From: an uncultured Actinomycetes bacterium
Lineage (GTDB): Bacteria > Actinomycetota > Thermoleophilia > RBG-16-64-13
Assembly: GCA_963706025.1 (NCBI GenBank)
Contig: CAVPLM010000003.1
Span: forward strand, 32,001 to 96,000
Direction of reading: 5' to 3'
DNA length: 64,000 nucleotides
The translations under genes were made by a program, and so were the position numbers. Below are positions 24,048 to 39,775 of the stretch, one piece after another (the first letter of the stretch is position 1; each line of letters opens with the position of its first letter). A model generated the notes under the pieces. The model saw only the letters and a program-made list of their open reading frames with translations. It made no database searches and was not told the origin of the DNA.

Positions 24048-24152
24048 CCCGTGACCGGCTCGCACCCTGAGTCCGTCGAGATGCCTACCTGATTTCGAGC
24101 CCGAGCTGCTGTTGTGCGCCCCCGATCGCCGCAGCAGGGTATCATTCGCCGC

Positions 24153-27100
24153 ATGAGACCGATCGAGGTACCGTTCGATTCTGACGCCCTTCGGGCGAAC
24201 CTTGCAGGCACCACTCAAGAGGTGGTCATTCCCGACCGCTATCTGCCACTGGTCCAGGCCGTCGACGGCTTGTACGGTGTACGCACGCCCCTGACCGAGA
24301 CCCTGGCCGAGTATTTCCACGCCTTTCGCAACGTCGACCTGCTCATCGACGGCTTTCAGACCATCCTTCTGCGCAATTGGACCTACTTCGAGCGTTCAGA
24401 AGACCGCGCTCGGTGCTTCGGGCTGCTCTCCGAACTGGTGCTCGACCTTCTCGATACCCCACTTACCGAGGGGCAGACGTCGTTGTTGCTGCGCCAGTTG
24501 CTCTCTTGGTGCACCACGGCTCTGCGCGGACCCTTCTCCGACGCTTACGACGACAGCCTGCAGGCCGTAGCCGAATGCCTCTCCCGATCGCTTTCCCGGC
24601 AACCGCTTGCTTTCTTGGAGCGGGACGCCCTGGTGCGTGGTGTTGTCGAGCGAGCCGCGAAACGGCCTGCCGTCGAACTGGTGTTCTCCGAGCTCTACCG
24701 GGACCTCCTGCTTCTGGGGTACCGGAGGCTGAGCGAGCGACTGCCCATACCCCAATGGGCCACTTCGACCGAGGCAGAGCTCGCCGACGCCGAAGCCGTC
24801 GCCGCCAACTTCTCGCTGTTGGCCCCAGAGCGGATCGCCGGACTCATGGCACGAGCGGAGAGTGCGTCGCTCCCCGACCTGCTGTCCCCTGAACTTCCGG
24901 TCTTCTCCGCCATCCTCGACCAGGCCATCGACCAGGTCTTCCGGATCGATGACCTCGAGGATCGCTTCGCAGTCTGCCTCTATTTCCTTAAAGACGACAC
25001 CCTGGGCTACCGTCAAAACGAGGTGATGGTCGACCTGCTGGGAGTGATCAGACAGCTCATGAAGCCCGAGCGGCACATGGACGTCGATCGTATCCTAAGC
25101 CGCCTCACCCGCTTCTTCCGGGCGCGCGACAACCAGTTCCTTCTCATGCGCTTCCAGTGCTACGAAGCCATCGGAGTGGCTATCGGCGAGGCAGGCAACG
25201 TGGCGGCGGCCGACCACGTCATCGAGGACGTGCTCTCCTGGCGGTTCCAGTACCCCGACATAAGGGGCGCCACGGACGACTGGGAGACGATGGTCAACCC
25301 GTTCCACCTGCCCAAGATCCGCTGCTGGATGCACATCGTCGAGTCCAATCCCTCCCTCTACGAACGATTGGCCGCCGCCCTCAACGTGCAGCTGCGCCTG
25401 GGCGGCGTATACATCGCCGACACCGACCTCTTCCAGCGTGATGTCACCCTCTTCCTGAACGCCGATATCCGGCCCATATACTTCGTGGCCAAGCAGTTGC
25501 TCCGAGCGTTCCCCGTGTACTTCAACGACGTGGGCGCCGAAGGCGAGTTGCGGTCCGTGTCTACCGAGATAGACGAGATCTGTGGGCGTCGGGACACGCT
25601 CATGCATTTCATCCGCAAGCAATCCCACGCTGAGTCGTCCAACCGCTTGGTGGCTTTCAGCAGGGCGGTGCTCTCCTATTGGATGACTCTGGACCCCTCC
25701 GGTCTGGAGCCCTACATTTCGGCCAATACCATGGCCGCCGTGCACCGGGAATCGGAATGGGCCGAGGAGCCCCACGCTGTTCTTCTCGGACTTTGGGCGG
25801 CTCTCGAGGATGGGAGACGCCCAGACGGGAACGCGGGGCCGAACCTGGAGTCGTTCCTCGATCGGTTGGTCAGTCTCCCGCCGTCCGCGCTGGAGGAACT
25901 GGTCGGCGGGCTGCCCGGGCCGGAAGACAGCGGCTCGACGGGCCCCCGCCGGGTCCTTCTCATGGTCCGCACCTATCAGCTACTCGCCCAGAAGTACTCG
26001 CTGTCGGCCGACAATATAGGTCCGGCCGTCGCTCACCATCTGCAACTCGACGCAAAGATTCGGCTCAAATTCGCGAGGGCCTTGCGCGCCTGGCAGGCCG
26101 AGCCCAAAGCCTCGGCCCGCGACCATCTGCTCGACGTGGCTCTGACCGTGCTCGAACAGTTGAAAGACATCATCTTGAATCCCTCGCCATCAGTGGCGGT
26201 GGAGAACATCTACCAGAAGCGGCATATCGCCGCCGGCATCCCCTCCATGTACGGCAACTACAGCGAGCCGAAGTTCGATGCTCTGGGCCTTTCCTTCCGG
26301 GTGGAGAACCTGGTGGCCCGCTTGCTTGAGGACCTGGTTACCGAGGGCACCGACGCGTATGTGACCCGCGACTCCCTGCGGCGAATGGCCGTCGCCATAA
26401 GACGGTTCGAACGCGCCTTGGCGGCGGGTGGCGTTGATTCCCGCAACCTGGCCGCCAACCTGCGCCTGCTCGAGTCCAGTTTCAGCAGCCACAATTTCAC
26501 CTTCCATCAGTATCGCAACGTGTTCCAGTTCATCGTCGGCTCGGTCACCGAGTTGTCGCGCACCTCGATACTCAGCCACGACCAAGTGCTGCGCGCGGTA
26601 CTCGAACACGACCCCCGGCAGTGCGAAGCCCGCTGCCTCTCGCTCGACGCGACGGCCGAGGTGGTCCTGCGGGAAGTGCTGGTCACAGCTCTGGGCATGC
26701 AGACCCTGGACCGCTACGTCTCCGCTGCTCTACACCAGATCTCCACCCTTGCCGGGCGCCTTAGCAATCAGGCCTTGACCCGGATGATGAACTACGACCC
26801 CGAACGCCTGGTCTCCCCAATACACGAGGCCAAGCCCAGCACGGACGACCAGATGACCCTGGGCTTCAAGGGACTGGGGCTCAAGCAGATGGCTTCGTAC
26901 AAGCATCGAGTCCCCGAGGGCTTCATCCTCAGCACCGAGCTGTTCGGCGCCTGGCCTGCCATGTCTCACCGGCCCCTTTACGACGACACTCTCGAGCGTA
27001 TCCGCAAAGCGCTGGGCCGTCTGGAGAGAGAGACGGGGCTCCGTCTGGGCGACCCCGCCCGCCTGCTCACGCTCTCGATCCGATCCGGCGCGGCCATTTC

Positions 27101-28340
27101 CCTGCCAGGGCTCATGACCACCTTCGTCGACGTTGGCCTGAACGACAGATTGGCGGAGGCTCTCTCGCGCCGGCCTGGATTCGATTGGGCAGCCTGGGAT
27201 TCGTACCGGCGGTTCCTTCAGTCGTGGGCCATGGCGTCGGGCGTCGACCGGGACTTCTTCGACGGGATCATGAACGAGTTCAAGCTGCGCTACGGCATCG
27301 AACGCAAGCTCGACTTTCTCCCCGAGCACATGCGCGAACTGGCCTTCACGTACAAGGCCCGCGGCCGGGAGCTGGGGGTCAAGTACACCGACGATCCTTT
27401 CCGCCAGGTCGTCGGCTGTATGCGGAAGGTCCTGGCATCCTGGGATTCGCCCGAGGCCAAGCTCTACCGCCGTTACCTCGGGGTGGCCGAGGAGTGGGGC
27501 ACCGCCGTTGTGGTGCAGAGAATGGTCTTCGGGAATCTCAGCCGCGAATCGGGTTCTGGTGTCACGTTCACGCGCAACCCCTTGGAGCCGTATAGCAGCC
27601 AGGTTCGGCTTTTTGGCGACTTCACCGCCCGGAGCCAAGGCGAGGACCTAGTGGCCGGCCTTGTGTTCCCCCTGCCCATCTCCGAAGCGCAGCGCCTCGG
27701 CAGCCCCACCTACCGGGGCATAGAGCATTCTCTGGAGCGGGATTACCCGGAGGTCTACCTGGCACTGCTCGCAATCGCCCGGGACCTGGTGAACACGCGG
27801 GAGTTCGACCCCCAAGAGATCGAGTTCACCTTCGAGTCCGCGTCCGGACAGGATCTTTACGTCCTTCAGAAACGGGCGATGGTGCAACAACAGACGACGG
27901 AGATGCCCTATTTCGACACTTCCTCGCCGCACTTCGGCCCGCCCGCCGCCGTAGGCATGGGGGTGGCCGGTGGCGCCTACTCAGGAAGAGCGGCGATCAA
28001 CGCCCGGCAGATCTCCCGCCTCCTCGCCCACGCCCCTGACGACAACATCCTGCTGCTCAGGCCCGACACCGTGCCCGAGGACATCGCCATGATCGCCCAG
28101 GTCTCCGGCCTGCTCACCGCCAGGGGCGGAGCCACGTCACATGCGGCCGTCACCGCCAAGCGTCTGGGGAAGGTCGCCGTGGTCGATTGCCGAGAGTTGG
28201 ATGTGGTCGAGCACCGAGGGGTCGCGTACCTCGCCGGAACGAAGATCAAGGCCGGCGATTGGCTCTCCATAGACGGCCGTACCGGCAATATCTTCTGGGG
28301 ACGCATCCCTACTCTGGCGCGACCCATCATCTCCCTCTAG
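24153..28340 (+). CDS. Large dikinase-like protein: ~900-aa unknown N-terminal region, PPDK-type ATP-grasp domain and phospho-His swivel domain; no PEP/pyruvate-binding barrel
   Basis: LGFKG, VPEGF, SIRSGAAISLPG, WDSYRRF, GTAVVVQRMVFGN, SGSGVTFTRNP, QGEDLVAG, EIEFT, LQKR, and TARGGATSHAAV; the protein ends just after SIDGRTGNIFWG. Confidence 0.85.
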   Translation: MRPIEVPFDSDALRANLAGTTQEVVIPDRYLPLVQAVDGLYGVRTPLTETLAEYFHAFRNVDLLIDGFQTILLRNWTYFERSEDRARCFGLLSELVLDLLDTPLTEGQTSLLLRQLLSWCTTALRGPFSDAYDDSLQAVAECLSRSLSRQPLAFLERDALVRGVVERAAKRPAVELVFSELYRDLLLLGYRRLSERLPIPQWATSTEAELADAEAVAANFSLLAPERIAGLMARAESASLPDLLSPELPVFSAILDQAIDQVFRIDDLEDRFAVCLYFLKDDTLGYRQNEVMVDLLGVIRQLMKPERHMDVDRILSRLTRFFRARDNQFLLMRFQCYEAIGVAIGEAGNVAAADHVIEDVLSWRFQYPDIRGATDDWETMVNPFHLPKIRCWMHIVESNPSLYERLAAALNVQLRLGGVYIADTDLFQRDVTLFLNADIRPIYFVAKQLLRAFPVYFNDVGAEGELRSVSTEIDEICGRRDTLMHFIRKQSHAESSNRLVAFSRAVLSYWMTLDPSGLEPYISANTMAAVHRESEWAEEPHAVLLGLWAALEDGRRPDGNAGPNLESFLDRLVSLPPSALEELVGGLPGPEDSGSTGPRRVLLMVRTYQLLAQKYSLSADNIGPAVAHHLQLDAKIRLKFARALRAWQAEPKASARDHLLDVALTVLEQLKDIILNPSPSVAVENIYQKRHIAAGIPSMYGNYSEPKFDALGLSFRVENLVARLLEDLVTEGTDAYVTRDSLRRMAVAIRRFERALAAGGVDSRNLAANLRLLESSFSSHNFTFHQYRNVFQFIVGSVTELSRTSILSHDQVLRAVLEHDPRQCEARCLSLDATAEVVLREVLVTALGMQTLDRYVSAALHQISTLAGRLSNQALTRMMNYDPERLVSPIHEAKPSTDDQMTLGFKGLGLKQMASYKHRVPEGFILSTELFGAWPAMSHRPLYDDTLERIRKALGRLERETGLRLGDPARLLTLSIRSGAAISLPGLMTTFVDVGLNDRLAEALSRRPGFDWAAWDSYRRFLQSWAMASGVDRDFFDGIMNEFKLRYGIERKLDFLPEHMRELAFTYKARGRELGVKYTDDPFRQVVGCMRKVLASWDSPEAKLYRRYLGVAEEWGTAVVVQRMVFGNLSRESGSGVTFTRNPLEPYSSQVRLFGDFTARSQGEDLVAGLVFPLPISEAQRLGSPTYRGIEHSLERDYPEVYLALLAIARDLVNTREFDPQEIEFTFESASGQDLYVLQKRAMVQQQTTEMPYFDTSSPHFGPPAAVGMGVAGGAYSGRAAINARQISRLLAHAPDDNILLLRPDTVPEDIAMIAQVSGLLTARGGATSHAAVTAKRLGKVAVVDCRELDVVEHRGVAYLAGTKIKAGDWLSIDGRTGNIFWGRIPTLARPIISL

Positions 28341-28527
28341 AGCCGCCCGCCTGGGCCGGCCATGAGGTCACCTAACGACGCGACCGTACTCCGATGTCCC
28401 TGCGCGCGCTGGAATCCGGGCGCTTCTGGAAGTACCCTGGAAAGAAGAGACACGCGTCCGCCGCCGAACCGCAACGGCACCGGCGCTCGGACGGTAATCG
28501 GAATCTAGGAGATGGGAGGCCTGGCCA

Positions 28528-29763
28528 ATGAGCGCGCCGCGCAAGCTGGGGATCAACGGGCTGGGACGGATCGGGAAGCTAACCCTGTGGTACCACCTGG
28601 GTCACGATGACTTCGACTGCTTCGTGATCAACGTGGGCCGCCAGGTGGGGACTTCGCTTCAGTCCGTCGTCGAGTACGTCAGCAAGGACAGCACTTACGG
28701 GCCGCTGCACCGTTATCTGTACGGTCATCAGGGCAAGAGGGACATCGAGGTGGTCGATGAGGCGGCAGGACTTGTCAGGGCGCACGGCAAGGAGATCATC
28801 CTCCTGCGAGAAGCCCGCAATCCCAAAGATATCCCCTGGCGTGACCACGGAGTGAGCCTGGTGGTGGAATGCACCGGCACATTCCGGGATCCCCACGCCG
28901 ACGCCGAGGACCCGAAAGGGGCGCTCCGGGGCCATCTGGCCGCCGGAGCGCGAACGGTCGTGCAGAGCTCCCCGTTCAAGAGCAAGACCAAGGGAGTGCC
29001 GCTGCCTGAAGACACCGCCATCCTGATCAACGGCATCAACCACTCCGAGTATGATCCGGGCAAGCACAAGATCGTCTCAGCCGCCTCCTGCACCACCACG
29101 GCTCTTGCTCACATGATGCGGCCTCTGCTGGCCCGGGACCTCACCCGGCATATGATCACCGCGGGGATGAGCACCGTCCACGCGGTCACCAACAGCCAGC
29201 CGGTGCTCGACGCGGTCCCGGGTTCGGGCGCTACCGACCTCCGCAAGACCCGCGCCGCCATGAACAACATCGTTCTGACGTCCACCAACGCCGCAAAGGC
29301 GCTCGAGCAGGTCATGCCCGAGGTAGCCCGCATCGGCTTCATGGCCGATTCGGTGCGCATCCCTACTGCCAGCGTGAGCCTGATCATCCTGAATGTCACC
29401 TTCCAGAGCGAGAGCCTGCCCGACGGGACGGTGACGGTGGACCGCGAAGCCATCAACGCCATCTACCGGGAAGCTTCCGAAGGCGAGGCCCGAGGTCTAC
29501 TCAAGTACAGCGAGGAGCAGAACGTCTCCGCGGACATGTTGGGTGAAGACGCGGCAGTGGTGATCGAAGCGGTGGAGACCCACACCCGCACCGGTTTCGT
29601 CGATCTAAGGATACCGGACTGCCAACCCGGGGGTGAGACCGCCTATCGCGATCACCGCATGCCGCTCACTCACGTGAAGGTCTTCGGCTGGTACGACAAC
29701 GAGATGGGCAGCTACACATATCGGCTGGGCGAGCTCACCAGCCACGTCGCGGGGAGTATGTAA
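28528..29763 (+). CDS. Divergent GAPDH-family (type I-like) dehydrogenase
   Basis: GINGLGRIG, VVECTG, SAASCTTTAL (catalytic Cys), TVHAVT (His), STNAAKA, RIPT, WYDNE. Confidence 0.85.
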   Translation: MSAPRKLGINGLGRIGKLTLWYHLGHDDFDCFVINVGRQVGTSLQSVVEYVSKDSTYGPLHRYLYGHQGKRDIEVVDEAAGLVRAHGKEIILLREARNPKDIPWRDHGVSLVVECTGTFRDPHADAEDPKGALRGHLAAGARTVVQSSPFKSKTKGVPLPEDTAILINGINHSEYDPGKHKIVSAASCTTTALAHMMRPLLARDLTRHMITAGMSTVHAVTNSQPVLDAVPGSGATDLRKTRAAMNNIVLTSTNAAKALEQVMPEVARIGFMADSVRIPTASVSLIILNVTFQSESLPDGTVTVDREAINAIYREASEGEARGLLKYSEEQNVSADMLGEDAAVVIEAVETHTRTGFVDLRIPDCQPGGETAYRDHRMPLTHVKVFGWYDNEMGSYTYRLGELTSHVAGSM

Positions 29764-29792
29764 GGCAGTTCCCTCACGGTTATCCTTCGCGA

Positions 29793-30378
29793 CTACTCCC
29801 CCACGGTCAGGATCGTGGCTTCGATCCGGGGCCGGGCCCGCGGCCCGGCCCCGGACTCAGATCCCTGTGTTCGAAAGATCTCGAGCCGAGCCATGGTCCG
29901 GGGGCGGCCGAACCGCCGTGGCCCGGCCGAGCCGGGGTTGAGATACAGCACGTGGTCACGCTCCTCGACCGAGGCCAGATGGCTGTGTCCGAATATGACC
30001 GCCGCGAGGTCTCCGCCGGCCTTTGGCCCGCCTCCGCCTGGTTCGGTCCGCAGCCCCCGCGCAATGTGGCCGACCAGGATACGCGCACCCCCTATGGTCA
30101 CCTCGGCCCGCGCAGGGAGGCTTCCGGCCCAGGCAGAGCAGATCGCAGTTACCCCTCACCGCCGTGACCGGAGCCATCGCCTGCAGAGCAGCCAGCACCT
30201 GGGGAGAGCCCACATCACCCGCGTGGATGATATGGTCGACTCCCTGGAGCAGCTTTAGGACCTGGGGATACAGCTGCCCATGGGTGTCGGAAAGGACGCC
30301 CACCACGATCGAGCCCCTTGCCGTTGAATGGTCCAAGCCTTGATTCCCCTCTGCGGTCGTTGGCGCGCAGGCTTTCAA
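29793..30378 (-). CDS. YfcE/MJ0936-type metallophosphoesterase (+1 insertion near 30138; start uncertain)
   Basis: SDTHG, HAGD and RGNCD in ORF 29956-30378; FGHSH and LNPGS in ORF 29793-30101. Confidence 0.85.
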
Positions 30379-30389
30379 AGGTCATCCTT

Positions 30390-31475
30390 CTAGAGGAGAT
30401 CCACGTACAGGTCCTCGGCCAGATCGTTCCCCGGTGGGAGGTGGCCCTGTTCGTGAGCATATCGGGCGAGCAACTCGCTCTCGCGCTGCGTGTAGAGGGG
30501 GTCGAGTTCCACTTTGAAGAAGGCGACCGTGACGCAGGCCGGCTCCGCTAACGCCTCAGCCAGACCCTGCCGCAGGTTCGCTACTCCTCCGATGCGGAGG
30601 ATCTGTCCTTCCGGGTCCATGAGTTGGAAGACGCCGGCCTCGCAGGGGACCGCCGTCATTATCGCAAGATCGACCGCCTGCCAAGCCTCGGGAGGTAGTA
30701 CGGGCGTACAAAGACCGCTCTTCGCGCGGCGATCGGCCAGCCAGCGCGCCCCGTCTTCCCCAGGCGCGGTGAGCGCACCCGCGGGGCAGACCATGACGCA
30801 GTGCCCGCAGAACGTGCAGCCCGAAACGCGCAGGGTGTCCCGCTTCGGACGCGCCACGAAGCCTGGCGGGGGATCCACCGACCGGGCGACCATCTCCAGC
30901 GCCCGACCGGCCTGCGGTGAAGTGTCGCACACCATCACGCACCGGCCGCAGCCGATGCACAATCCCGGTTCGCGCCGGATGCGCCCTTCCCGAACTGCAT
31001 CGCGCGGCACGGTAACCGAACCCCGAGCCAGGCTTCCTTCCGAGTCGAGATGGGCTACCATCTTGCCCAGTTCGCAGCGACCGAACTGGTCGCAACACCG
31101 TGCGTCCGCAGGATGGCCGTACGTGCACTGGTCCCGAGTGCAGCCGTCGCGGTCAGGGCAGGCAAGGCAGACGTGCGGATGCCGGGCCAGGATGCGCGCC
31201 AACCGCTCCAGCCGCGCCGCGGCCAGCCCCGGGTCTTGGGTGGTCACCTCCAGATCGGCGGCAGCCCTCGTGACGCAGGCGAGGGCCACGGACCCATCCT
31301 GAAGCCGCACAACACACAGCCCGCACTCGACTCCGCCCACCCCCGCCCGCGCGCAGCAAGCCAGGCCAGGATAGAAGCAGAGACGAGGAACATAGCGCCC
31401 GGCCGCGTCACAGGCTTCGAGGAGGGTCGTCCCGTCCGCGACGGTGACGGCCGCCCCGTCGACGCGCATCTGCAT
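30390..31475 (-). CDS. NuoG/hydrogenase N-terminal-like FeS protein ([2Fe-2S], His-ligated [4Fe-4S], 2x[4Fe-4S]) with BzdV-like C-terminal domain
   Basis: VPRLC...CGLCVV...ACVT; HPHVCLACP; CIGCGRCVMVC and CTFCGHCVMVCP; C-terminal GVFQL...YTQRESELL...PPGND. BzdV similarity is from recall. Confidence 0.75.
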   Translation of the reverse strand: MQMRVDGAAVTVADGTTLLEACDAAGRYVPRLCFYPGLACCARAGVGGVECGLCVVRLQDGSVALACVTRAAADLEVTTQDPGLAAARLERLARILARHPHVCLACPDRDGCTRDQCTYGHPADARCCDQFGRCELGKMVAHLDSEGSLARGSVTVPRDAVREGRIRREPGLCIGCGRCVMVCDTSPQAGRALEMVARSVDPPPGFVARPKRDTLRVSGCTFCGHCVMVCPAGALTAPGEDGARWLADRRAKSGLCTPVLPPEAWQAVDLAIMTAVPCEAGVFQLMDPEGQILRIGGVANLRQGLAEALAEPACVTVAFFKVELDPLYTQRESELLARYAHEQGHLPPGNDLAEDLYVDLL

Positions 31476-31519
31476 CTCTACGCTCGAGGCGTTCACCAGC
31501 TGCTGCCAGGCTCCGGCCG

Positions 31520-31813
31520 CTACCAGCTGTGGCGCAGCGCCCCGGCCGGGCAGGCGTCGGTGCAGGGAAGCTTGTGCTCCGAACCGCCGCTGCCGTTCTG
31601 ACCCTTGCACATGGAGCAAACCTCGCGGAGACGCTTCCGAGTCTTCTCCACCACCACAGCCACCAGGTCGTCGTAGTCGTCCGGCTCGACCGCGTAGACG
31701 CTCTGAGGGCAGGCGGTGACACACGGGTGGTGGGCGCAACGGGCGCAGAGACCGCCGTCGATGGTGATGTAGTAGAAGCCGGAGCCGTCCTCATAACCGT
31801 AGTTGGCGATCAT
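31520..31813 (-). CDS. bzdM: Benzoyl-CoA reductase-associated ferredoxin
   Basis: MIANYGYEDGSG-YITID, CxxC...CVTACP, CSMC...CTDACP...HSW; start overlaps the bzdQ stop (ATGA). Confidence 0.75.
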   Translation of the reverse strand: MIANYGYEDGSGFYYITIDGGLCARCAHHPCVTACPQSVYAVEPDDYDDLVAVVVEKTRKRLREVCSMCKGQNGSGGSEHKLPCTDACPAGALRHSW

Positions 31814-32703
31814 GCCGCGGCCGCCTTCTCCTTCTCCGCCTTCCTATGGAGAGAGTGAGCGAAGAGAGCCGCGCCCAGGGCGCCGGCGATCTGCGGGTCG
31901 AGCACCGAGTCCACCGGCAGCTTCACGGCCTCCACTCCGATCAGCCGCTCGATGCGCCGGGTCACCCCGATGTTCTTGCCGATGCCGCCCGTGATGAAGA
32001 ACTCGCGCTCCACCTCCATGCGCTCGATCAGTCCGGCCACCCGCTGGGCCATAGCCCCGCAGTAGGCGGCGAGCACTCGTTCGACGCTCCAGCCCGCTCG
32101 CAGCAGCGATGTGGCCTCCGACTTCGCGAACACGGTGCACACGTTGCTCACCGGAGGCGGTTCCTCGTCGATCTCGAATGAGCGCCGGCCGATATCCTCG
32201 ATCGGCACCGAAAGCGCGTCGGCGATGACTTCCATGCCCCGACCCGTCCCGGCCGCGCACTTGTCGTTCATGATGAAGTTGAGCACCTTGCCCCGCTCGT
32301 CGCAGCGGATGACCTTGCAGTCTTGGCCGCCCATGTCGAGGATGGTGCGCACGCTGGGCCCGCCCATGTAGTTGGCCCCCCGGGCGTGACAGGCGATCTC
32401 GGTGATGGTGCGGTCGGCGAAGGGTACGTTCACCCGGCCGTAGCCGGTGCCGACAGCGTAGCTCACGTCATCCAAGGTGAGGCCCAGGGACTCGCTCGCC
32501 CCTTTGAAGGCGCGCAGGGCGCTGTCAGGGCTCGAAGAGCCGGTGCGGGTGGAATGGAAGGAGAGCAGCTTGCCATCGGCGAGCAGCACGGCCTGAGAGC
32601 TCACCGACCCGACATCGATCCCCACCATGACGGCGGAGGCCATCCTCCAGTCGAGGTCAGGGGCCTGCCAGGTTCGTTCACTCCATCTCCAGAAATCTTG
32701 CAT
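31810..32703 (-). CDS. bzdQ: Benzoyl-CoA reductase bzd-type ATPase subunit Q (ASKHA activator family)
   Basis: N-terminal FWRWSE extension, GIDVGSVSSQAV, GTGYGRVNVPFA, TEIACHARGA, DMGGQDCK, MNDKCAAGTGRG, CTVFAKSE, TGGIGKN. Confidence 0.85.
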   Translation of the reverse strand: MQDFWRWSERTWQAPDLDWRMASAVMVGIDVGSVSSQAVLLADGKLLSFHSTRTGSSSPDSALRAFKGASESLGLTLDDVSYAVGTGYGRVNVPFADRTITEIACHARGANYMGGPSVRTILDMGGQDCKVIRCDERGKVLNFIMNDKCAAGTGRGMEVIADALSVPIEDIGRRSFEIDEEPPPVSNVCTVFAKSEATSLLRAGWSVERVLAAYCGAMAQRVAGLIERMEVEREFFITGGIGKNIGVTRRIERLIGVEAVKLPVDSVLDPQIAGALGAALFAHSLHRKAEKEKAAAA

Positions 32704-32877
32704 CTGTCCCCTCGCTCCCAGAGTCCTTCCTCAGCTCGGGCGCCGACCGGCCGGCCCAAGCGGCACCGGTGGATGATACCCGGCCGAAACGAGAGCGGGA
32801 AGAGGAGACCGCTCGTATCTTGGCGGCAACATCCCGTCCCTCACGAGTGGAATAGGGCTAAGGTACACGCGCAAGAT

Positions 32878-32910
32878 GGTAGGGTAGTAATGATACATTA
32901 CTTCCTTACC
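32878..32910 (+). promoter_or_regulatory. Palindromic operator upstream of the toxin-antitoxin operon
   Basis: AGTAATG-ATA-CATTACT (32886-32902), extended imperfectly by GGTAGGGT/TCCTTACC, directly before the AGGAG RBS. Confidence 0.7.
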
Positions 32911-32920
32911 AGGAGTTGTC

Positions 32921-33157
32921 ATGGAGACGCGAGCAGTGAGCAAGCTGACCAGCAAGTATCAGACCACGATCCCGGCGTGCATCCGGGATGCTCTGGGGCT
33001 ATCCAAGGGGGACTCGATGGTCTTCGAGACCGCAGACAATGGGACTGTGACCATGCGCAAGGCTGTCCCGCTGGACCTGGAGTTCGCCGGGGCGCTCGAG
33101 CCGCTTCTGTCAGAATGGGATTCCGACGAGGATGAGGAAGCCTACCGTGGCCTATGA
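32921..33157 (+). CDS. AbrB/MazE/SpoVT-family antitoxin
   Basis: SKLTSKYQTTIPACIRDALGLSKGD; acidic tail LSEWDSDEDEEAYRGL. Confidence 0.92.
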   Translation: METRAVSKLTSKYQTTIPACIRDALGLSKGDSMVFETADNGTVTMRKAVPLDLEFAGALEPLLSEWDSDEDEEAYRGL

Positions 33158-33518
33158 TCAGTGGGCCGTCGTCGTGGTGCCTTTTCCGTTCACCGACCGC
33201 AACACCCGGCGTCGTCGACCGGCGGTGGTGGTATCGCGTCCCTCCGAACTCGGCGCCCTCGTCAACCACAGTGTCCTTGCCATGATCACAAGCGCCGGCC
33301 ATCGCCGCTGGCCTCTCGACGTACCTATCACCGATCTCGCCACGGCCAGCATACCCGCACCGTCGGTAGTGCGCATGAAGCTGTTCACCCTGGATGACCG
33401 CCTCGTGCAACGACAGGCCGGGATGTTGGCCGCCATCGACGCCGCCGCGGTCGCTGAAGCGCTGGGCAGGTTGCTCTCGATTCGCTCGCAGGGTCGACTA
33501 GACCAGGCCGACGGCTAG
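33147..33518 (+). CDS. PemK/MazF-family toxin
   Basis: VVVVPFPFTD...RRRPAVVVS, AMITS, PSVVRMKLFTLD; GTG start overlaps the antitoxin end. Confidence 0.92.
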   Translation: MAYDQWAVVVVPFPFTDRNTRRRRPAVVVSRPSELGALVNHSVLAMITSAGHRRWPLDVPITDLATASIPAPSVVRMKLFTLDDRLVQRQAGMLAAIDAAAVAEALGRLLSIRSQGRLDQADG

Positions 33519-33525
33519 AGATTTC

Positions 33526-33556
33526 CCAGCCGGGGTGTGAGGCATCCCCGGCCTGG
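33526..33556. terminator. Hairpin between the convergent toxin and bzdP genes
   Basis: CCA-GCCGGGG...CCCCGGC-CTGG stem. Confidence 0.5.
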
Positions 33557-34339
33557 CTACCCCGGCGGCGCCGCCTCCCAGGCTATGAGGGCCGCGCCAT
33601 GCGCGCCTAGGTATTCGGCATCCGCCAGGACGTAGATATCCACCCCGCCCAAAGCCTCGGACAAGGATTTCACGAACCCGATGTTCAAGGCGGCCCCGCC
33701 GCCCAGCACGACCGGGTCCACGACGCCGATGCGCCGCACCATCGCCGACACCCGGCCGGCCATGGCGTCGTGCACGGCCCGGGCGATGTCGGCGGGAGGC
33801 GTGTTGGCGTGGATGAGGCTCACCACCTCAGACTCGGCGAACACGGTGCACTGAGCGTTCATGGGGATGGTCTCGGTGGAATCGAGAGAGGCTTTGGCGA
33901 AATCGTCCAGCGTCATGTCCAGCGCCCGGCTCATGGCCTCCACAAAGGCACCCGCCCCAGCGGCGCATTTCTCGTTGATGGCGAAGTCGACCACCTTGCC
34001 GCCATCGCCCAGACGGATGGCGCGGGCTTCGTCCGCGCCCACGTCGATGACAGTGCGGGCCCCCGGGTAGAGGTCGAAGGCGCCGCGGCCGTCCGCCGCG
34101 ACTTCGGTGGGCTGCTGACTCGCAGAAGAAAGGGCCTTCCGCCCGGCGCCGGTAGCCGCGACCACGTCGATGTCTTCGCGCCGGATGCCCGCTGCCGCGG
34201 CCGCTTGGGCCAGTCCCCGCTCCGCGGACTCCTCGTGGTCAAAACCGGAGGCCACGGCCGACCGAGCTACCAGCTCGCCATCTTTGAGGAGCACGACGTG
34301 CACGTTCTTCGCGCCCAAGTCGATACCCGCTACGATCAT
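33557..34339 (-). CDS. bzdP: Benzoyl-CoA reductase bzd-type ATPase subunit P / CoA-substrate activase
   Basis: AGIDLGAKN, ATGAGRK, IDVGADEAR, INEKCAAGAGAFVEAMSRAL, MNAQCTVFAESEVVSLIH; same strand and context as bzdQ/bzdM. Confidence 0.78.
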   Translation of the reverse strand: MIVAGIDLGAKNVHVVLLKDGELVARSAVASGFDHEESAERGLAQAAAAAGIRREDIDVVAATGAGRKALSSASQQPTEVAADGRGAFDLYPGARTVIDVGADEARAIRLGDGGKVVDFAINEKCAAGAGAFVEAMSRALDMTLDDFAKASLDSTETIPMNAQCTVFAESEVVSLIHANTPPADIARAVHDAMAGRVSAMVRRIGVVDPVVLGGGAALNIGFVKSLSEALGGVDIYVLADAEYLGAHGAALIAWEAAPPG

Positions 34340-34974
34340 GCCCGGCTAATCCGCCATTCTGCCGGGTCGAGCGCAAGCCCACAAGCGAGAGCCTTCACAT
34401 TCATTTCCTCGGTGCCCGCCGGTACCACGCCCATCACCGCTTTGCGTAGCGACTCGACCGAGACTATGCCCGTGATTCCCGCCACCGCGCCCAACGTAAG
34501 GATGTTCATGGTCTGTTGACGCCCTGTCTGCTCCACCGCCAGGCGGGTGAACGGGATCCCGAAGCTGACACCCCCGAACGCGGGCGGCTCGACGACATAC
34601 TCGAGGTCGTACATGAGAACGCCATTGGGGCGTAGGTACCGAGCGTAGCCCCTCGCCGAGTCTTGAGACAGGGCCACGAGCAGATCGACCTGGTCCAACT
34701 CGGGGTAGTCTATCGGCTGGTCCGAGATGAGGATGTCACTGCGGCTGTAGCCGCCACGCGCCTCCGGTCCGTACGACTGCGTCTGCACCACGTAGCGATG
34801 ATCTCGCGTGGCCGCCATCGCTAGGATGACACCCATGAGGATCACACCCTGGCCGCCGCTCCCCGCAAAACGCACCTCCAGGAAGTCGCGCGTCGCCAGC
34901 AGACCCGTGGCCACCTGCGCCTGATCGGGGCTGGGGTCCGCGCCGTCGGGTCCGTCCGGAGCTGCGGCTCTCAC
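34336..34974 (-). CDS. korC: 2-oxoacid:ferredoxin oxidoreductase gamma subunit
   Basis: RFAGSGGQGVIL, QSYGPEARGG. Confidence 0.9.
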   Translation of the reverse strand: MRAAAPDGPDGADPSPDQAQVATGLLATRDFLEVRFAGSGGQGVILMGVILAMAATRDHRYVVQTQSYGPEARGGYSRSDILISDQPIDYPELDQVDLLVALSQDSARGYARYLRPNGVLMYDLEYVVEPPAFGGVSFGIPFTRLAVEQTGRQQTMNILTLGAVAGITGIVSVESLRKAVMGVVPAGTEEMNVKALACGLALDPAEWRISRA

Positions 34975-35870
34975 TAGTCCTCCTCCTGGCCGGCCTGCTC
35001 GGCGGCCTCTGCTGCGGCCCCTTGCTCCGCCTCCGCGCGAGCCCGCTCTGCGGCCTCCGCGGTGGCGCGGGCCGCCATCTCCGCATAGGTCCGCTGGAAC
35101 TCAGGCGCGTCGACATCGCGGTGAAGTATCCCCGTTACGATCTTGTCCGCCAGTTCTTCGGCGGACATCGTCGCTGCTTTGCTTTTCGACACCGATCTGG
35201 CTTTCTCTTCATCCAGCATCGCCACCGCGCTCGCGGGCTTGTTCCGCTTGCCGTATTCCGTAGGGCACGGGACGACCGCTTCGATGAACGCGAAACCCGG
35301 GTGCTGGATCCCCTGCTTGATGAGCTTCTCCAAGGGCCTGATCTGGGCCGCAGTGCCCCGGGCCACGAAGCTTGCTCCCGCCGCCTCAGCCAACCGGCAC
35401 AGGTCGAAGGGCGGCTCTGCCTGGCCGTAGGGGGCCGTGGTGGCCCGATCACCCAGTTCCATCGTGGGGGAGAGCTGACCGCCGGTCATGCCGTAGATCT
35501 GGTTGTTGAACAAGATGCAGGTTATGTCGATGTTGCGCCGGCAGGCGTGGATCAAGTGGTTGCCTCCGATCGCGGCGCCGTCGCCGTCGCCGGTAACCAC
35601 GATCACGGTGAAATCGGGCCTGGCCATCTTTATTCCGGTAGCAAAAGCCAGCGCGCGGCCGTGGATCGCATGCACGCTACCGAGATCGACATAACCGGCC
35701 GCCCTGCTGGAGCAGCCGATGCCACCCACCACCACTGTCTCCTCGCGCTTCAACCCCAGATCGACCGCAGCCCGCAGGAAGGCCCCCGTCACTATGCCGA
35801 TCCCACAACCGGCGCACCAGATATGTGGGAGCCGCTCACTGTGCAGGAACTGCTCGATCTCGAGGGTCAT
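34974..35870 (-). CDS. korB: 2-oxoacid:ferredoxin oxidoreductase beta subunit (TPP-binding)
   Basis: WCAGCG, GIGCS, GDGDGAAIGGNH, NNQIYGMTGGQ, PCPT. Confidence 0.93.
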   Translation of the reverse strand: MTLEIEQFLHSERLPHIWCAGCGIGIVTGAFLRAAVDLGLKREETVVVGGIGCSSRAAGYVDLGSVHAIHGRALAFATGIKMARPDFTVIVVTGDGDGAAIGGNHLIHACRRNIDITCILFNNQIYGMTGGQLSPTMELGDRATTAPYGQAEPPFDLCRLAEAAGASFVARGTAAQIRPLEKLIKQGIQHPGFAFIEAVVPCPTEYGKRNKPASAVAMLDEEKARSVSKSKAATMSAEELADKIVTGILHRDVDAPEFQRTYAEMAARATAEAAERARAEAEQGAAAEAAEQAGQEED

Positions 35871-35933
35871 AGAGACCTCCCGTCGACCGTCCGTACTTGG
35901 CCGACCGCAGCGCGGTCCGCATCGCCCGCTGCG

Positions 35934-37112
35934 TCAGACCGTCTCATACTTGCCCACCAACTGGGTCACCCGCTCGAGGATCTCGCGCGGGGTGATCAGG
36001 GTTCCGTCGACCTTGCCCATGCTGATCACGGTCGTCCAGTTCTCGGCCATCTTGCGAACCTCGCGCGCATACTGGCCCAGGTTCAACTCGGGGATCAGGA
36101 TGAACTCTACCCGCCGGGCCACCGCCTGGATGATCTCCACCGGTAAGGGGAAAAGGGTGTAGAGGTGGAGCACCTCCACCGGCAGTCCTTCTTGGTCGGC
36201 CAGCTTCCAGGCCGCCCGAGCGCTGCGCGCACAGGAGCCGTATGCCACGATGCACACCCGGCCCTTGCCCTCGTTCTTGATGTCGTAGAGGCAGAGCTCA
36301 TCCCTGTGGTTGCCCACCTTGTCGAAGAGCTCGCGCAGGAACTGCTCGCTCTTCGCGTTCTCGTTCGCGGGGAACCCGGTCTCGTCGTGGATGAGTCCGG
36401 TCACGTGGGGATGGGTCTTCGAGCCCAGGACGTGAGGCGGATGCACCTCTCGCACAAGATCAGGATGGACGTATCCGGGGGTGAAGTCGAAATCACCGCT
36501 CGTGAGCCGGTATCGGCTGGCGAGTTCGGGAGAGAAGCTCTCCCGCATGTGACCGACCACCTCATCGGCCAGCAGTGTGACCGGGGTGCGGAAGCGCTGG
36601 CCGAAGCGCACTGCCGCCATGGTCAGCCGGTACATATCGGCCACGTTCGAAGCCGCCAGCACGATGGCGGGGTGGTCGCCGTGGGTACCCCATCGGGCCT
36701 GCATGACGTCGCCTTGCGACGGGGCGGTCGGGCGCCCGGTCGAGGGACCCGCCCTCATGACATCTACGATGACGAGTGGCGCCTCCGCCATGATGGCGTA
36801 GCCGATGGCCTCCTGCATCAGCGAGAAGCCGGGGCCGGAGGTGGCGGTCATAGCCAGCTGGCCGGCCAAAGACGCCCCGATGCAGGCGCAGATCGAGGCG
36901 ATCTCATCCTCCATCTGAACGAAGACGCCGCCCACCCTAGGCAGCTCATAAGCCATGGCTTCCATTATCTCGGAGCTGGGAGTGATGGGATATCCGGCGA
37001 AGAAACGGACCCCGGCGTCAAGAGCGCCCAAGGCACACGCCCGGTTTCCCTGGACCAACATGCTGGTCTGGTCAATCTGCTCCCGTAACAGGTGAGTGTG
37101 CCAGAGTTCCAT
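35934..37112 (-). CDS. korA: 2-oxoacid:ferredoxin oxidoreductase alpha subunit
   Basis: FFAGYPITPSSE, QMEDE, TATSGPGFSLMQE, RAGPSTG, ELNLGQY. Confidence 0.93.
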   Translation of the reverse strand: MELWHTHLLREQIDQTSMLVQGNRACALGALDAGVRFFAGYPITPSSEIMEAMAYELPRVGGVFVQMEDEIASICACIGASLAGQLAMTATSGPGFSLMQEAIGYAIMAEAPLVIVDVMRAGPSTGRPTAPSQGDVMQARWGTHGDHPAIVLAASNVADMYRLTMAAVRFGQRFRTPVTLLADEVVGHMRESFSPELASRYRLTSGDFDFTPGYVHPDLVREVHPPHVLGSKTHPHVTGLIHDETGFPANENAKSEQFLRELFDKVGNHRDELCLYDIKNEGKGRVCIVAYGSCARSARAAWKLADQEGLPVEVLHLYTLFPLPVEIIQAVARRVEFILIPELNLGQYAREVRKMAENWTTVISMGKVDGTLITPREILERVTQLVGKYETV

Positions 37113-37130
37113 CTCGACCCGGCCCTGCGG

Positions 37131-37796
37131 CTACTGTCCGCTCCGCCGCTCGTTATCCGGCGAGCGGAGATAGGCGATGATCACGTCGGCCAACTTGTGG
37201 ATGAGGAGGTCGCCGGGCACCGACTCCGGAAACAAGACCCCCGACCGGCACCTCTGCACGTTCTCCTCCTGGGCCGCCTGCCACAGCCGGGAAGCGACCC
37301 GAGCCGCCGACTCCGGGTCCGAATGCCCGATCTGGGCCGCATGGCCCATCAGGATGTCAACCTCGAGGCTCTCCACCTGCGCCTTGTAGCGGTAGCCCCG
37401 CTGCCGCAGGACGGAGTCGGTAGCGCCGCACACCACGAAAGCCTCGAGTAGTCTGTCGTTTCCTCTGGTCGCCGCCTGTTTGATCTCGACCAGACCGCGC
37501 ACGGTTCGTTCAAGCGAAAGCGCAGTCCAGTCGACCTTGGCCGCCTGCTCGCGTATCTGCATCTCTTCGCGGCCGTGCACCCTCTCCTGCACCGCATGGA
37601 GAAGAGCGGTCTTGTCTTCGAAGCGGGCATAGAAAGTACCGATGGACGTGTCCGACCGGCGCACCACCTCTGCAACGGTGAGCGCTTCGTAGCCCTTTGT
37701 TCGGATCAGCGTCTCCGCAGTCCTGAGGATCCGCTCCAAAGAGTCGGAACTGCGTTGCTGACGGGGCGTCTTGACGGCGTGTGCGGACTCGGCCAC
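37131..37796 (-). CDS. TetR/AcrR-family regulator, probably leaderless
   Basis: PRQQRS...LTVAEVVRRSDTSIGTFYARFEDK HTH; TAGAAT 6 nt before the GTG start. Confidence 0.92.
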   Translation of the reverse strand: MAESAHAVKTPRQQRSSDSLERILRTAETLIRTKGYEALTVAEVVRRSDTSIGTFYARFEDKTALLHAVQERVHGREEMQIREQAAKVDWTALSLERTVRGLVEIKQAATRGNDRLLEAFVVCGATDSVLRQRGYRYKAQVESLEVDILMGHAAQIGHSDPESAARVASRLWQAAQEENVQRCRSGVLFPESVPGDLLIHKLADVIIAYLRSPDNERRSGQ

Positions 37797-37847
37797 AGTG
37801 CGATTCTATCACCGGATCGGCAGGGACACCACCTTCTGTCACCTGAC

Positions 37848-37876
37848 TTGACGATAGAATCTAGATTCTATATTCT
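37848..37876 (+). promoter_or_regulatory. Sigma70-type promoter TTGACG-N17-TATTCT with a perfect 18-bp palindrome ATAGAATCTAGATTCTAT across the spacer
   Basis: -35 at 37848-37853, palindrome at 37854-37871, -10 at 37871-37876; points toward gltA and lies next to the divergent tetR. Confidence 0.8.
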
Positions 37877-38038
37877 ATGCGGCGCTCGCCCGTCCGGGAG
37901 CCCTCCCCCCTGGCTCCCGACGGGCTCGAGCCCACCGCCCTCCTCCGACCCTCGACAAGAGAGGCGTCACGATCATCGACTGGCCGGTAGACTATCGCGA
38001 GAACCCCATCCTAGGAGACGAGCAGAAAGGTCGGGGAT

Positions 38039-39397
<1,359 letters not shown>

Positions 39398-39421
39398 CCG
39401 TTCGCTCGGGCGGGGACGATC

Positions 39422-39775
39422 CTAGAAGTGCGCGACCGCGGTGGACTCCTGGGCTAGGTAGCCCTTCAGAAAGGGAAGGTGCCTCAGGAAGTAGGTCTCG
39501 GGTTCGGTGCGGATCGTCACCTCGTACCACCGACTGCTCGCCTTGTGGTATCCGGCTGCGATGAGCTGCACGCCCGCTTCGTCGGCGATCCCCTGGACCA
39601 CCGCTTCGGCCGCCGTCTCGCTGCCTTTTGTGGCCACGAACGTCTGGGCAGCCTGCTCCGCTGCACCTTTGGCCACTTCCACCGCGGTGCGGTGAGCCGC
39701 ATACATCCCCAGGCCGTCGACCACCAACGCGGCGGCGACCGCCAGTACGATAACGATTACTATAATCGCCCTCAT
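39422..39775 (-). CDS. Small membrane-anchored protein, TadE/TadG pseudopilin-like
   Basis: N-terminal TM ending VVDG, followed by an Ala-rich helix (AKGAAEQAA). Confidence 0.6.
   Translation of the reverse strand: MRAIIVIVIVLAVAAALVVDGLGMYAAHRTAVEVAKGAAEQAAQTFVATKGSETAAEAVVQGIADEAGVQLIAAGYHKASSRWYEVTIRTEPETYFLRHLPFLKGYLAQESTAVAHF

Follow-up and report, generated by a model that had tools for sequence, protein, structure and literature searches.

A korABC-linked BzdPQ electron activator without BzdNO in a Thermoleophilia genome, and an unlinked HGD-D pair as its candidate client

The DNA analysed here is a stretch of 64,000 nucleotides, hereafter the window, from an uncultured Actinomycetes bacterium of the class Thermoleophilia (GTDB lineage RBG-16-64-13; assembly GCA_963706025.1, contig CAVPLM010000003.1, positions 32,001 to 96,000), and its subject is a minus-strand operon that joins a 2-oxoacid:ferredoxin oxidoreductase (KOR) to the electron activator of a Bzd-type benzoyl-CoA reductase (BCR). 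The genome holding the window (G000), a metagenome-assembled genome (MAG), is 92.3% complete with 7.3% contamination. The operon is headed by a TetR-family regulator gene (tetR, 37131..37796, PF00440), followed by korA for the alpha subunit (35934..37112; PRK08659, 476.5 bits against a cut-off of 411), korB for the beta, thiamine-pyrophosphate-binding subunit (34974..35870; PF02775, and PRK09628 with 298.6 bits, below the cut-off of 364) and korC for the gamma subunit (34336..34974; PF01558, and PRK08537 with 177.6 bits, below the cut-off of 235). Then follow P, a BzdP orthologue and ASKHA ATPase subunit of the electron activator (33557..34339; PF01869, BcrAD_BadFG), Q, a BzdQ orthologue and second ATPase subunit (31810..32703; TIGR03192, 416.9 bits against a cut-off of 380.2), M, a BzdM-type ferredoxin with weak 4Fe-4S dicluster matches (31520..31813), and a 'V-like' Fe-S protein gene (30390..~31496, with its start probably at 31472-31496). 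Neighbouring genes overlap by TAGTG at korB/korC and by ATGA at korC/P and Q/M. A preliminary description of the locus had put all of these genes, and a toxin-antitoxin pair between P and Q, on one strand. The genes do lie in that order on the minus strand, but the pair (AbrB/MazE antitoxin and PemK/MazF toxin, 32921..33518; PF04014, PF15937, PF02452) is an accessory antisense insert on the plus strand. The same description had noted that the ATGA overlap of korC and P leaves no room for N and O genes, and indeed no N/O gene is present in the locus.

Assigning the substrate of the oxidoreductase was less straightforward: the alpha subunit passes the general 2-oxoacid model, while the alpha and beta models specific for 2-oxoglutarate:ferredoxin oxidoreductase stay below cut-off. 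The window operon has no korD, and a korD-like gene was seen before korA only in two genomes with the basal layout described below (G006 and G008). The V-like protein combines a wire that resembles the N-terminal part of NuoG/HydA (Fer2_4, NADH-G_4Fe-4S_3, Fer4) with a C-terminal DUF7508, and its matches in the PDB are restricted to Fe-S modules. BzdV is described as a putative NADPH:ferredoxin oxidoreductase (PMC5658619), and neither domain nor PDB searches found a flavin or NAD(P)H domain in the V-like protein; the likeness to BzdV suggested earlier, judged here by description only, is not upheld. The gene is missing from the PQ loci of G013, G017, G006 and G044 and is dispensable.

The comparisons drew on a set of 61 genomes of the order, 43 of which make up the kor-PQM clade that includes G000. 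One genome, G008, carries a complete N-O-P-Q-M operon, in which N (567.4 bits) and O (584.3 bits) both exceed their cut-offs and find their best structure matches in BzdN and BzdO of Aromatoleum, and the identity of its proteins to those of the window is 65% for P, 76% for Q and 55% for M. P matched no curated BzdP model. The cluster cysteines Cys125 and Cys164 of P are invariant in 12/12 sequences, as are Cys149 and Cys189 of Q in 10/10, and an orthologue of Q is found in 49 of the 61 genomes, mostly at 76-94% identity. Beyond the family, bzdQ was found in none of the 397 other-family genomes of a 401-genome phylum sample. The ratio of non-synonymous to synonymous substitution rates (dN/dS) against congeners was 0.078-0.086 for P, 0.058-0.068 for Q and 0.073 for M, with 0.115 for korA, 0.21 for the Fe-S protein and 0.069-0.102 for the nearby gene gap; taken together with Y, a protein introduced below, P, Q and M all fall at 0.06-0.09 and are comparable to gap. 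Judged from their sequences, P, Q and M are thus true Bzd orthologues under strong purifying selection. The actinobacterial origin proposed earlier agrees with the labels of close homologues (Thermoleophilia or Actinomycetota).

The preliminary description had linked the operon to anaerobic degradation of aromatic compounds, and this was not supported. A search of the genome for bzdN and bzdO, which had been proposed there, came back empty: the best TIGR03190 (BzdN) score in G000 was 67.5 against a cut-off of 453.8 and TIGR03191 (BzdO) gave no match. Within the completeness of the MAG, Dch, Had and Oah were likewise not found, and the operon is therefore not a benzoate pathway. Across the order, bzdO exceeded its cut-off in 2/61 genomes, none of them in the clade of G000, and BadI in 0/61, while Dch and Had were below cut-off in 5/5 genomes tested. 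Oah is present in 16/61 genomes, every one of them from one of seven other genera, and in 0/43 of the clade and 0/2 of genus g12; some of the genomes that have it lack PQ, and others have PQ without bzdO (G005, G012, G018 and G043; genera g4, g8 and g28). The genes paaK, aor and ubiX, cited earlier as aromatic context, are found at a distance of 8-16 kb, on the far side of gap, ppdk and a CNNM gene, and do not belong to the unit. With regard to a class II (tungsten) benzoyl-CoA reductase as a conceivable client, G000 encodes eight AOR-family proteins with a generic NCBIfam match only, and the one of the eight that was compared with the PDB is nearer to AOR than to BamB.

If P and Q are maintained without BzdNO, their catalytic client should be encoded elsewhere, as had been suggested, and the proposed search for HgdAB-family genes yielded two stand-alone HGD-D pairs in G000. 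One of them (C5:175109-177747) has its own activator gene; this pair (C5:175109-178701) was rejected as a client, being self-sufficient in this respect and patchy in relatives. The other, here called XY (C5:827188-829559), consists of X (C5:827188-828312), an HGD-D subunit with a predicted double cubane cluster, and Y (C5:828318-829559), an HGD-D subunit with a predicted three-Cys [4Fe-4S] site, and has no activator gene beside it. The same is true of 20/20 and 50/50 XY loci of the order in two overlapping sets. Q and Y co-occur in 44 of the 61 genomes, with Q only in 5, Y only in 4 and neither in 8 (counting the frameshifted Q of G010 as present and a 47% match in G053 as absent). Short frames in two of the Q-only genomes match part of X, and the four Y-only genomes have a completeness of 51-74%. 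The most telling genome is G017 (1.8 Mb, 96% complete), where PF01869 matches nothing but P and Q, and PF06050 nothing but X and Y. In 6/10 clade genomes tested, no stand-alone HGD-D pair other than XY was found; the others have extra HGD-D genes, some of them without an activator. G014 and G072 lack both PQ and XY, and korABC is still present at this chromosomal position in G014, with gnd and yfcE immediately behind it, in agreement with a joint loss. Co-folding of Q and P with X reached 0.29 against a mark of 0.32, in a run without controls, and was counted neither way.

X and Y belong to another subfamily than BzdN and BzdO. Y has many relatives at ~25-30% identity, several of them named from Firmicutes, and in 80 metagenome loci of this wider family the layout is usually X'-Y'-activator (an activator in 55 of 74 informative loci); fusions of Y' with the activator and of X with Y also exist (L201-L280; P0121, P0135, P0146, P0158, P0229). 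No pathway genes are common to the wider loci, in which a radical SAM gene is the commonest extra neighbour (13/80). X has six invariant cysteines that align with six of BzdN, and all six are kept in 47/47 full-length X' proteins, with three kept in HadC-like proteins. According to PMC11971306, the six cysteines of BzdN bind an [8Fe-9S] double cubane and dehydratases lack such a cluster. In Y, the only three invariant cysteines are the cluster residues C109, C137 and C363, accompanied by the active-site Glu E80, and BzdO His131 is replaced by Lys. The structural model of Y (pLDDT 94.8) is closest to HadB (Z 39.2, root-mean-square deviation 2.5, 370 aligned residues), ahead of BzdO (Z 35.7) and MbdO (34.8), all at 18% identity.

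The N-terminal body of X scored 53.8 bits with an X' profile and 0.1 with a BzdN profile (31 sequences), and a fast tree, whose branches are long, places X within X'; as far as these comparisons go, X is a descendant of the X' family. Its C-terminus is a different matter. A GP..R[VI]EAFLE motif and an acidic-Leu tail were found in 42 and 39 of 42 X proteins (the number of the 50 loci with a readable end) and in 103 and 108 of 111 parsed BzdN sequences, as opposed to 0 and 0 of 47 X' proteins. BzdN of Aromatoleum ends like X; HadC, MbdN and DCCP do not. Over the last 30-45 residues of X the BzdN and X' profiles were nearly even (23.7 and 21.6). The corresponding C-terminal helix of DCCP is in contact with its ATPase (PMC9351452), and the X C-terminus is, going by the motif, a possible docking signature. 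Tails of the D/E-D/E-L-F type were also noted on the V-like protein (window 30390-30430) and on an 86-aa protein of the basal operons (L053:13210-13470, L056:13900-14178), and the acidic ends of BzdN, X and these two proteins may reflect a shared docking tag or a habit of the lineage.

The link between kor and PQ was surveyed in 31 PQ loci from other genomes. korC directly precedes P in 22 of these, one locus that ends at Q is uninformative and eight have another, basal layout. The kor-linked loci mostly lie between gltA and yfcE-gap-ppdk, such of their genomes as were included in the RpoB tree group together in a single clade (12 rows, support 100; the tree was made by a fast method and its G010 row is wrong), and the adjacency of kor and PQM is kept in 23/23 informative clade loci, window included. 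A TetR gene is upstream of korA in most clade loci, and was not seen in some g14 loci or in G013. The ATGA coupling and the retention in all 23 loci suggest that the junction is in use now, although the position of korABC alone at the same place in G014 means that it may owe something to an old neighbourhood. Behind PQM, the eight basal loci encode a small protein and a LytS/LytTR-type pair; where the contigs extend far enough, genes for an enoyl-CoA hydratase, a PanE-like dehydrogenase and a CoA ligase come next, and then a HadC/HadB-like pair without an activator; some have an Fe-S gene after M, and only G008 has N-O ahead of PQ. Because the HadC/HadB-like pair lacks its own activator, PQ already appears, from this gene content, to serve a dehydratase-like client in the basal loci. 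The basal operon as a whole (L053, L056, L059, L303-L307) resembles a 2-hydroxyacid dehydration route sharing the BCR activator, and G008 would have both clients in one cluster.

The best reading of these data is that PQ has been re-wired to a radical CoA-ester enzyme, probably one resembling 2-hydroxyacyl-CoA dehydratases, an option that the preliminary description had offered as its alternative and that the data favour over the aromatic one. More specifically, I consider it likely, at a probability of roughly 70%, that PQ, having lost its client BzdNO, activates the unlinked XY in trans. KorABC would oxidise a 2-oxoacid and reduce M, and M would load a predicted [4Fe-4S] cluster bridging P and Q. 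At the expense of ATP, PQ would then drive an electron into the predicted [8Fe-9S] double cubane of X. From X the electron would reach the three-Cys [4Fe-4S] site of Y, and Y would have as its substrate a CoA ester that neighbouring CoA-transferases produce. Since the binding of PQ to its catalytic dimer is predicted to be no more than transient (PMC11971306), a change of client is plausible.

Several observations weigh against this assignment. The Q/XY pattern needs only two changes on the RpoB tree, which makes the co-occurrence weak statistics, and three genomes have Q but no XY that could be found (G034 and G045, each 90% complete, and G051, 88%). The main loophole is a fused protein of ~1050-1300 aa with two BcrAD domains, which is present in most genomes and could activate XY; only G017 excludes this. 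An adjacent activator is also lacking in 19/74 wider X'Y' loci, and KorABC is unlinked from PQ in the basal genera. As for the tail, its score favours BzdN in only 19/31 X sequences, the GP motif also occurs elsewhere (as GPLNTK in the self-activated paralogue at C5:175109), the HadC-like gene of the basal PQ operon does without it, and acidic tails end the V-like and the small basal protein as well. With regard to dehydration by XY, the catalytic Ser of HadB/BzdO could not be placed with confidence in Y, as alignments differ by a few positions, and no dehydratase is known to have a double cubane (PMC11971306).

Other explanations have to be weighed against the same evidence. The loophole just described amounts to the view that XY is activated by fused two-domain BcrAD proteins or another ATPase, that PQ serves another low-potential client and that the shared distribution reflects common descent; the two changes on the tree, the wide presence of the fused proteins and the further activator-less HGD-D genes in G040 and G054 speak for it, yet G017 has neither a fused protein nor another HGD-D gene, and X carries a BzdN-like C-terminus that is absent from 47/47 wider relatives. 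I regard this view as unlikely. Somewhat less probable is a function of PQ inside its own operon, in which ATP would be spent on super-reducing M or the Fe-S wire for reductive carboxylation of an acyl-CoA by KorABC. The translational coupling of korC to P and the 23/23 adjacency speak for this, as do the missing korD and the citrate synthase gene that is usually next door, but known ATPases of the class dock on HGD-D-fold acceptors (PMC7317905 and PMC9351452), PQ is unlinked from kor in seven basal loci, G014 has korABC without PQ, and XY would be left with no activator in G017.

A little further down in probability stands an aromatic role, where the module would feed a distant aryl-CoA reductase of a benzoyl-CoA-type pathway, be it a BzdNO that dropped out of the assembly or XY itself as a divergent ring reductase. 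Its attraction lies in the descent of PQM from a complete bzdNOPQM operon, kept in G008 with N and O that match Aromatoleum structures, in the BzdN-type six cysteines of X and in a G000 assembly that is 92% complete; it suffers from the near-absence of bzdO and the lack of Oah, badI, Dch and Had hits given above, and also from the alignment of Y, in which His131, Gln274 and Tyr298 of BzdO are not kept. Finally, P, Q and M could be the decaying remains of a bzd operon that no longer exists. In favour of this, N/O and the downstream pathway have disappeared, insertions accumulate in the P-Q gap and the Fe-S gene has been lost in some genomes, but selection has largely refuted this idea already: dN/dS values of 0.058-0.086, invariant cluster cysteines and a Q orthologue in 49/61 genomes leave it barely credible. 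The electron-supply module with a client encoded elsewhere that was proposed in the preliminary description is supported; the module is conserved, and XY is a specific candidate for the client.

Granted that PQ partners XY, the reaction is somewhat more likely than any other to be a radical dehydration of a 2-hydroxyacyl-CoA, with odds slightly better than even. This is the first choice because of the HadB-like fold, the CoA-transferase neighbours and the absence of ring-cleavage genes. A 3-oxoacid-CoA-transferase-like gene lies directly upstream of XY, in divergent orientation, in 25/44 loci with enough sequence, a PanE-like dehydrogenase takes the same place in 5/44, and CoA-transferase genes of either type are found within 8 kb (<=8 kb) of XY in 38/50 loci. 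CoA-transferase and 2-hydroxyacid-dehydrogenase-like genes are the usual company of 2-hydroxyacyl-CoA dehydratases. The second choice, appreciably less probable, is a two-electron reduction of a non-benzoyl CoA ester. Dehydratases recycle one electron, according to PMC11971306 and PMC7317905, and a double cubane with a dedicated KOR-ferredoxin-ATPase supply therefore fits a two-electron reductase better. More doubtful is a wider proposal, in which BzdPQ has turned into a free-standing, ATP-driven electron hub fed by KOR, and its main client XY stands for a widespread family of heterodimers, with double-cubane and open [4Fe-4S] subunits, whose reaction would be new (for example two-electron reduction of a non-aromatic CoA ester, or its reductive dehydroxylation); XY would have dropped its activator and gained a BzdN-like docking tail. 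A propionyl-CoA (lactoyl-CoA) route, considered for the mutase/PCC genes beside XY, was not adopted, with a mutase in 3/50 loci.

Several known systems can be compared with the module and its candidate client. The class I BCR of strain CIB (BzdNOPQ, BzdM, BzdV; PDB 8S02; PMC11971306, PMC5658619) has orthologous P, Q and M in the same order, and X shares the six cysteines and a similar tail with BzdN, as Y does three cysteines and the Glu with BzdO. It differs in that the window genome lacks BzdN/O and Dch/Had/Oah, has korABC in the same operon as PQM and encodes a V-like protein without a flavin/NADPH domain, and in that XY is of another subfamily, the identity of Y to BzdO being no more than 18% in the structural comparison. 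In class I BCR, korAB and bzdV have been named as the ferredoxin-regenerating system (PMC5736913); the window operon likewise ties a 2-oxoacid oxidoreductase of this family to a ferredoxin and an activator, but its beta and gamma subunits are below cut-offs, it has no delta subunit and there is no BCR to supply. With 2-hydroxyacyl-CoA dehydratases (HadBC/HadI, HgdAB/HgdC; PDB 3O3M, 4EHT, 1HUX), Y shares its closest model, the three cluster cysteines and the Glu, and the locus shares the CoA-transferase and 2-hydroxyacid-dehydrogenase-like neighbours; here, however, the activator would be a heterodimeric BzdPQ far away rather than a homodimer in the operon (0/20 and 0/50 loci), and X has six cysteines as opposed to three in the HadC-like protein of the basal operon. 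DCCP and DCCP-R (PDB 6ENO, 7YYL; PMC9351452, PMC7317905) resemble XY in the predicted [8Fe-9S] cluster of X and in loading by an ASKHA ATPase, but DCCP is a homodimer with the double cubane as its active site, whereas XY would be a heterodimer with a three-Cys catalytic subunit.

BzdPQ is known only as one half of benzoyl-CoA reductase. A search of the open literature, which leaves most subscription journals outside, found no description of BzdPQ without BzdNO serving another HGD-D subfamily; the parts themselves are known. Although the clade has lost both the reductase and the pathway for ring cleavage, it retains BzdPQ nearly as if this were a core gene, and bzdQ annotations in these MAGs therefore overcall aromatic degradation. 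Should PQ power XY, nature would have exchanged one client for another, the C-terminal tail would be indicated as what determines docking, and a testable enzyme would be at hand from a wide family that has no known reaction and whose predicted cofactors resemble those of BzdNO. PMC11971306 describes just one double-cubane enzyme whose catabolic role is defined.

A few further observations were made around these loci. The P-Q gap (window 32704-33556; L292-L308, L063) is an insertion hot spot, with inserts of 5-6 kb in five genus-g14 genomes and a whole or partial mazEF in 6/22 other kor-linked loci, and Q may need its own promoter. A scan of the operon for promoters and terminators returned 1 and 2 sites, no more than in shuffled sequences. 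RNA contigs of three of six runs over window 27500-39500 were short only, e.g. in run X2 one of 233 nt with four differences in Q and one of 185 nt with four in korC; such contigs cannot show transcription. korABC is tandemly duplicated in G001 and G003, as is korC alone in G016 and G068 (L049, L051, L063, L308). Another 2-oxoacid oxidoreductase occurs in G000 three times in nearly identical form, each time on a small contig (C1, C8, C29), in line with the 7% contamination of this genome.

Near XY, a DUF3795 gene is found in 20/50 loci (L105-L154). The last 31 codons of Y are copied, at 84% identity, at G000:C5:837105-837197 (L083), just past a methylmalonyl-CoA mutase/PCC block, which suggests that the block was inserted at the end of Y. 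Single DCCP-like genes stand beside ABC-transporter genes in G040 and G054 (L319:1627-2910, L320:5160-6443) with no activator nearby, a further HGD-D pair in G054 (L318:5265-7887) likewise has none, and in such genomes PQ may serve additional activator-less HGD-D proteins. Downstream of the window operon, the yfcE-like phosphoesterase gene (29793-30378) seems split across two frames, probably by a sequence error in the window, as contigs of two runs lack one base at 30139. Beyond it, a PPDK-like protein of ~1400 aa (24114-28340), in which the PPDK match is C-terminal only, is conserved beside gap across the family.

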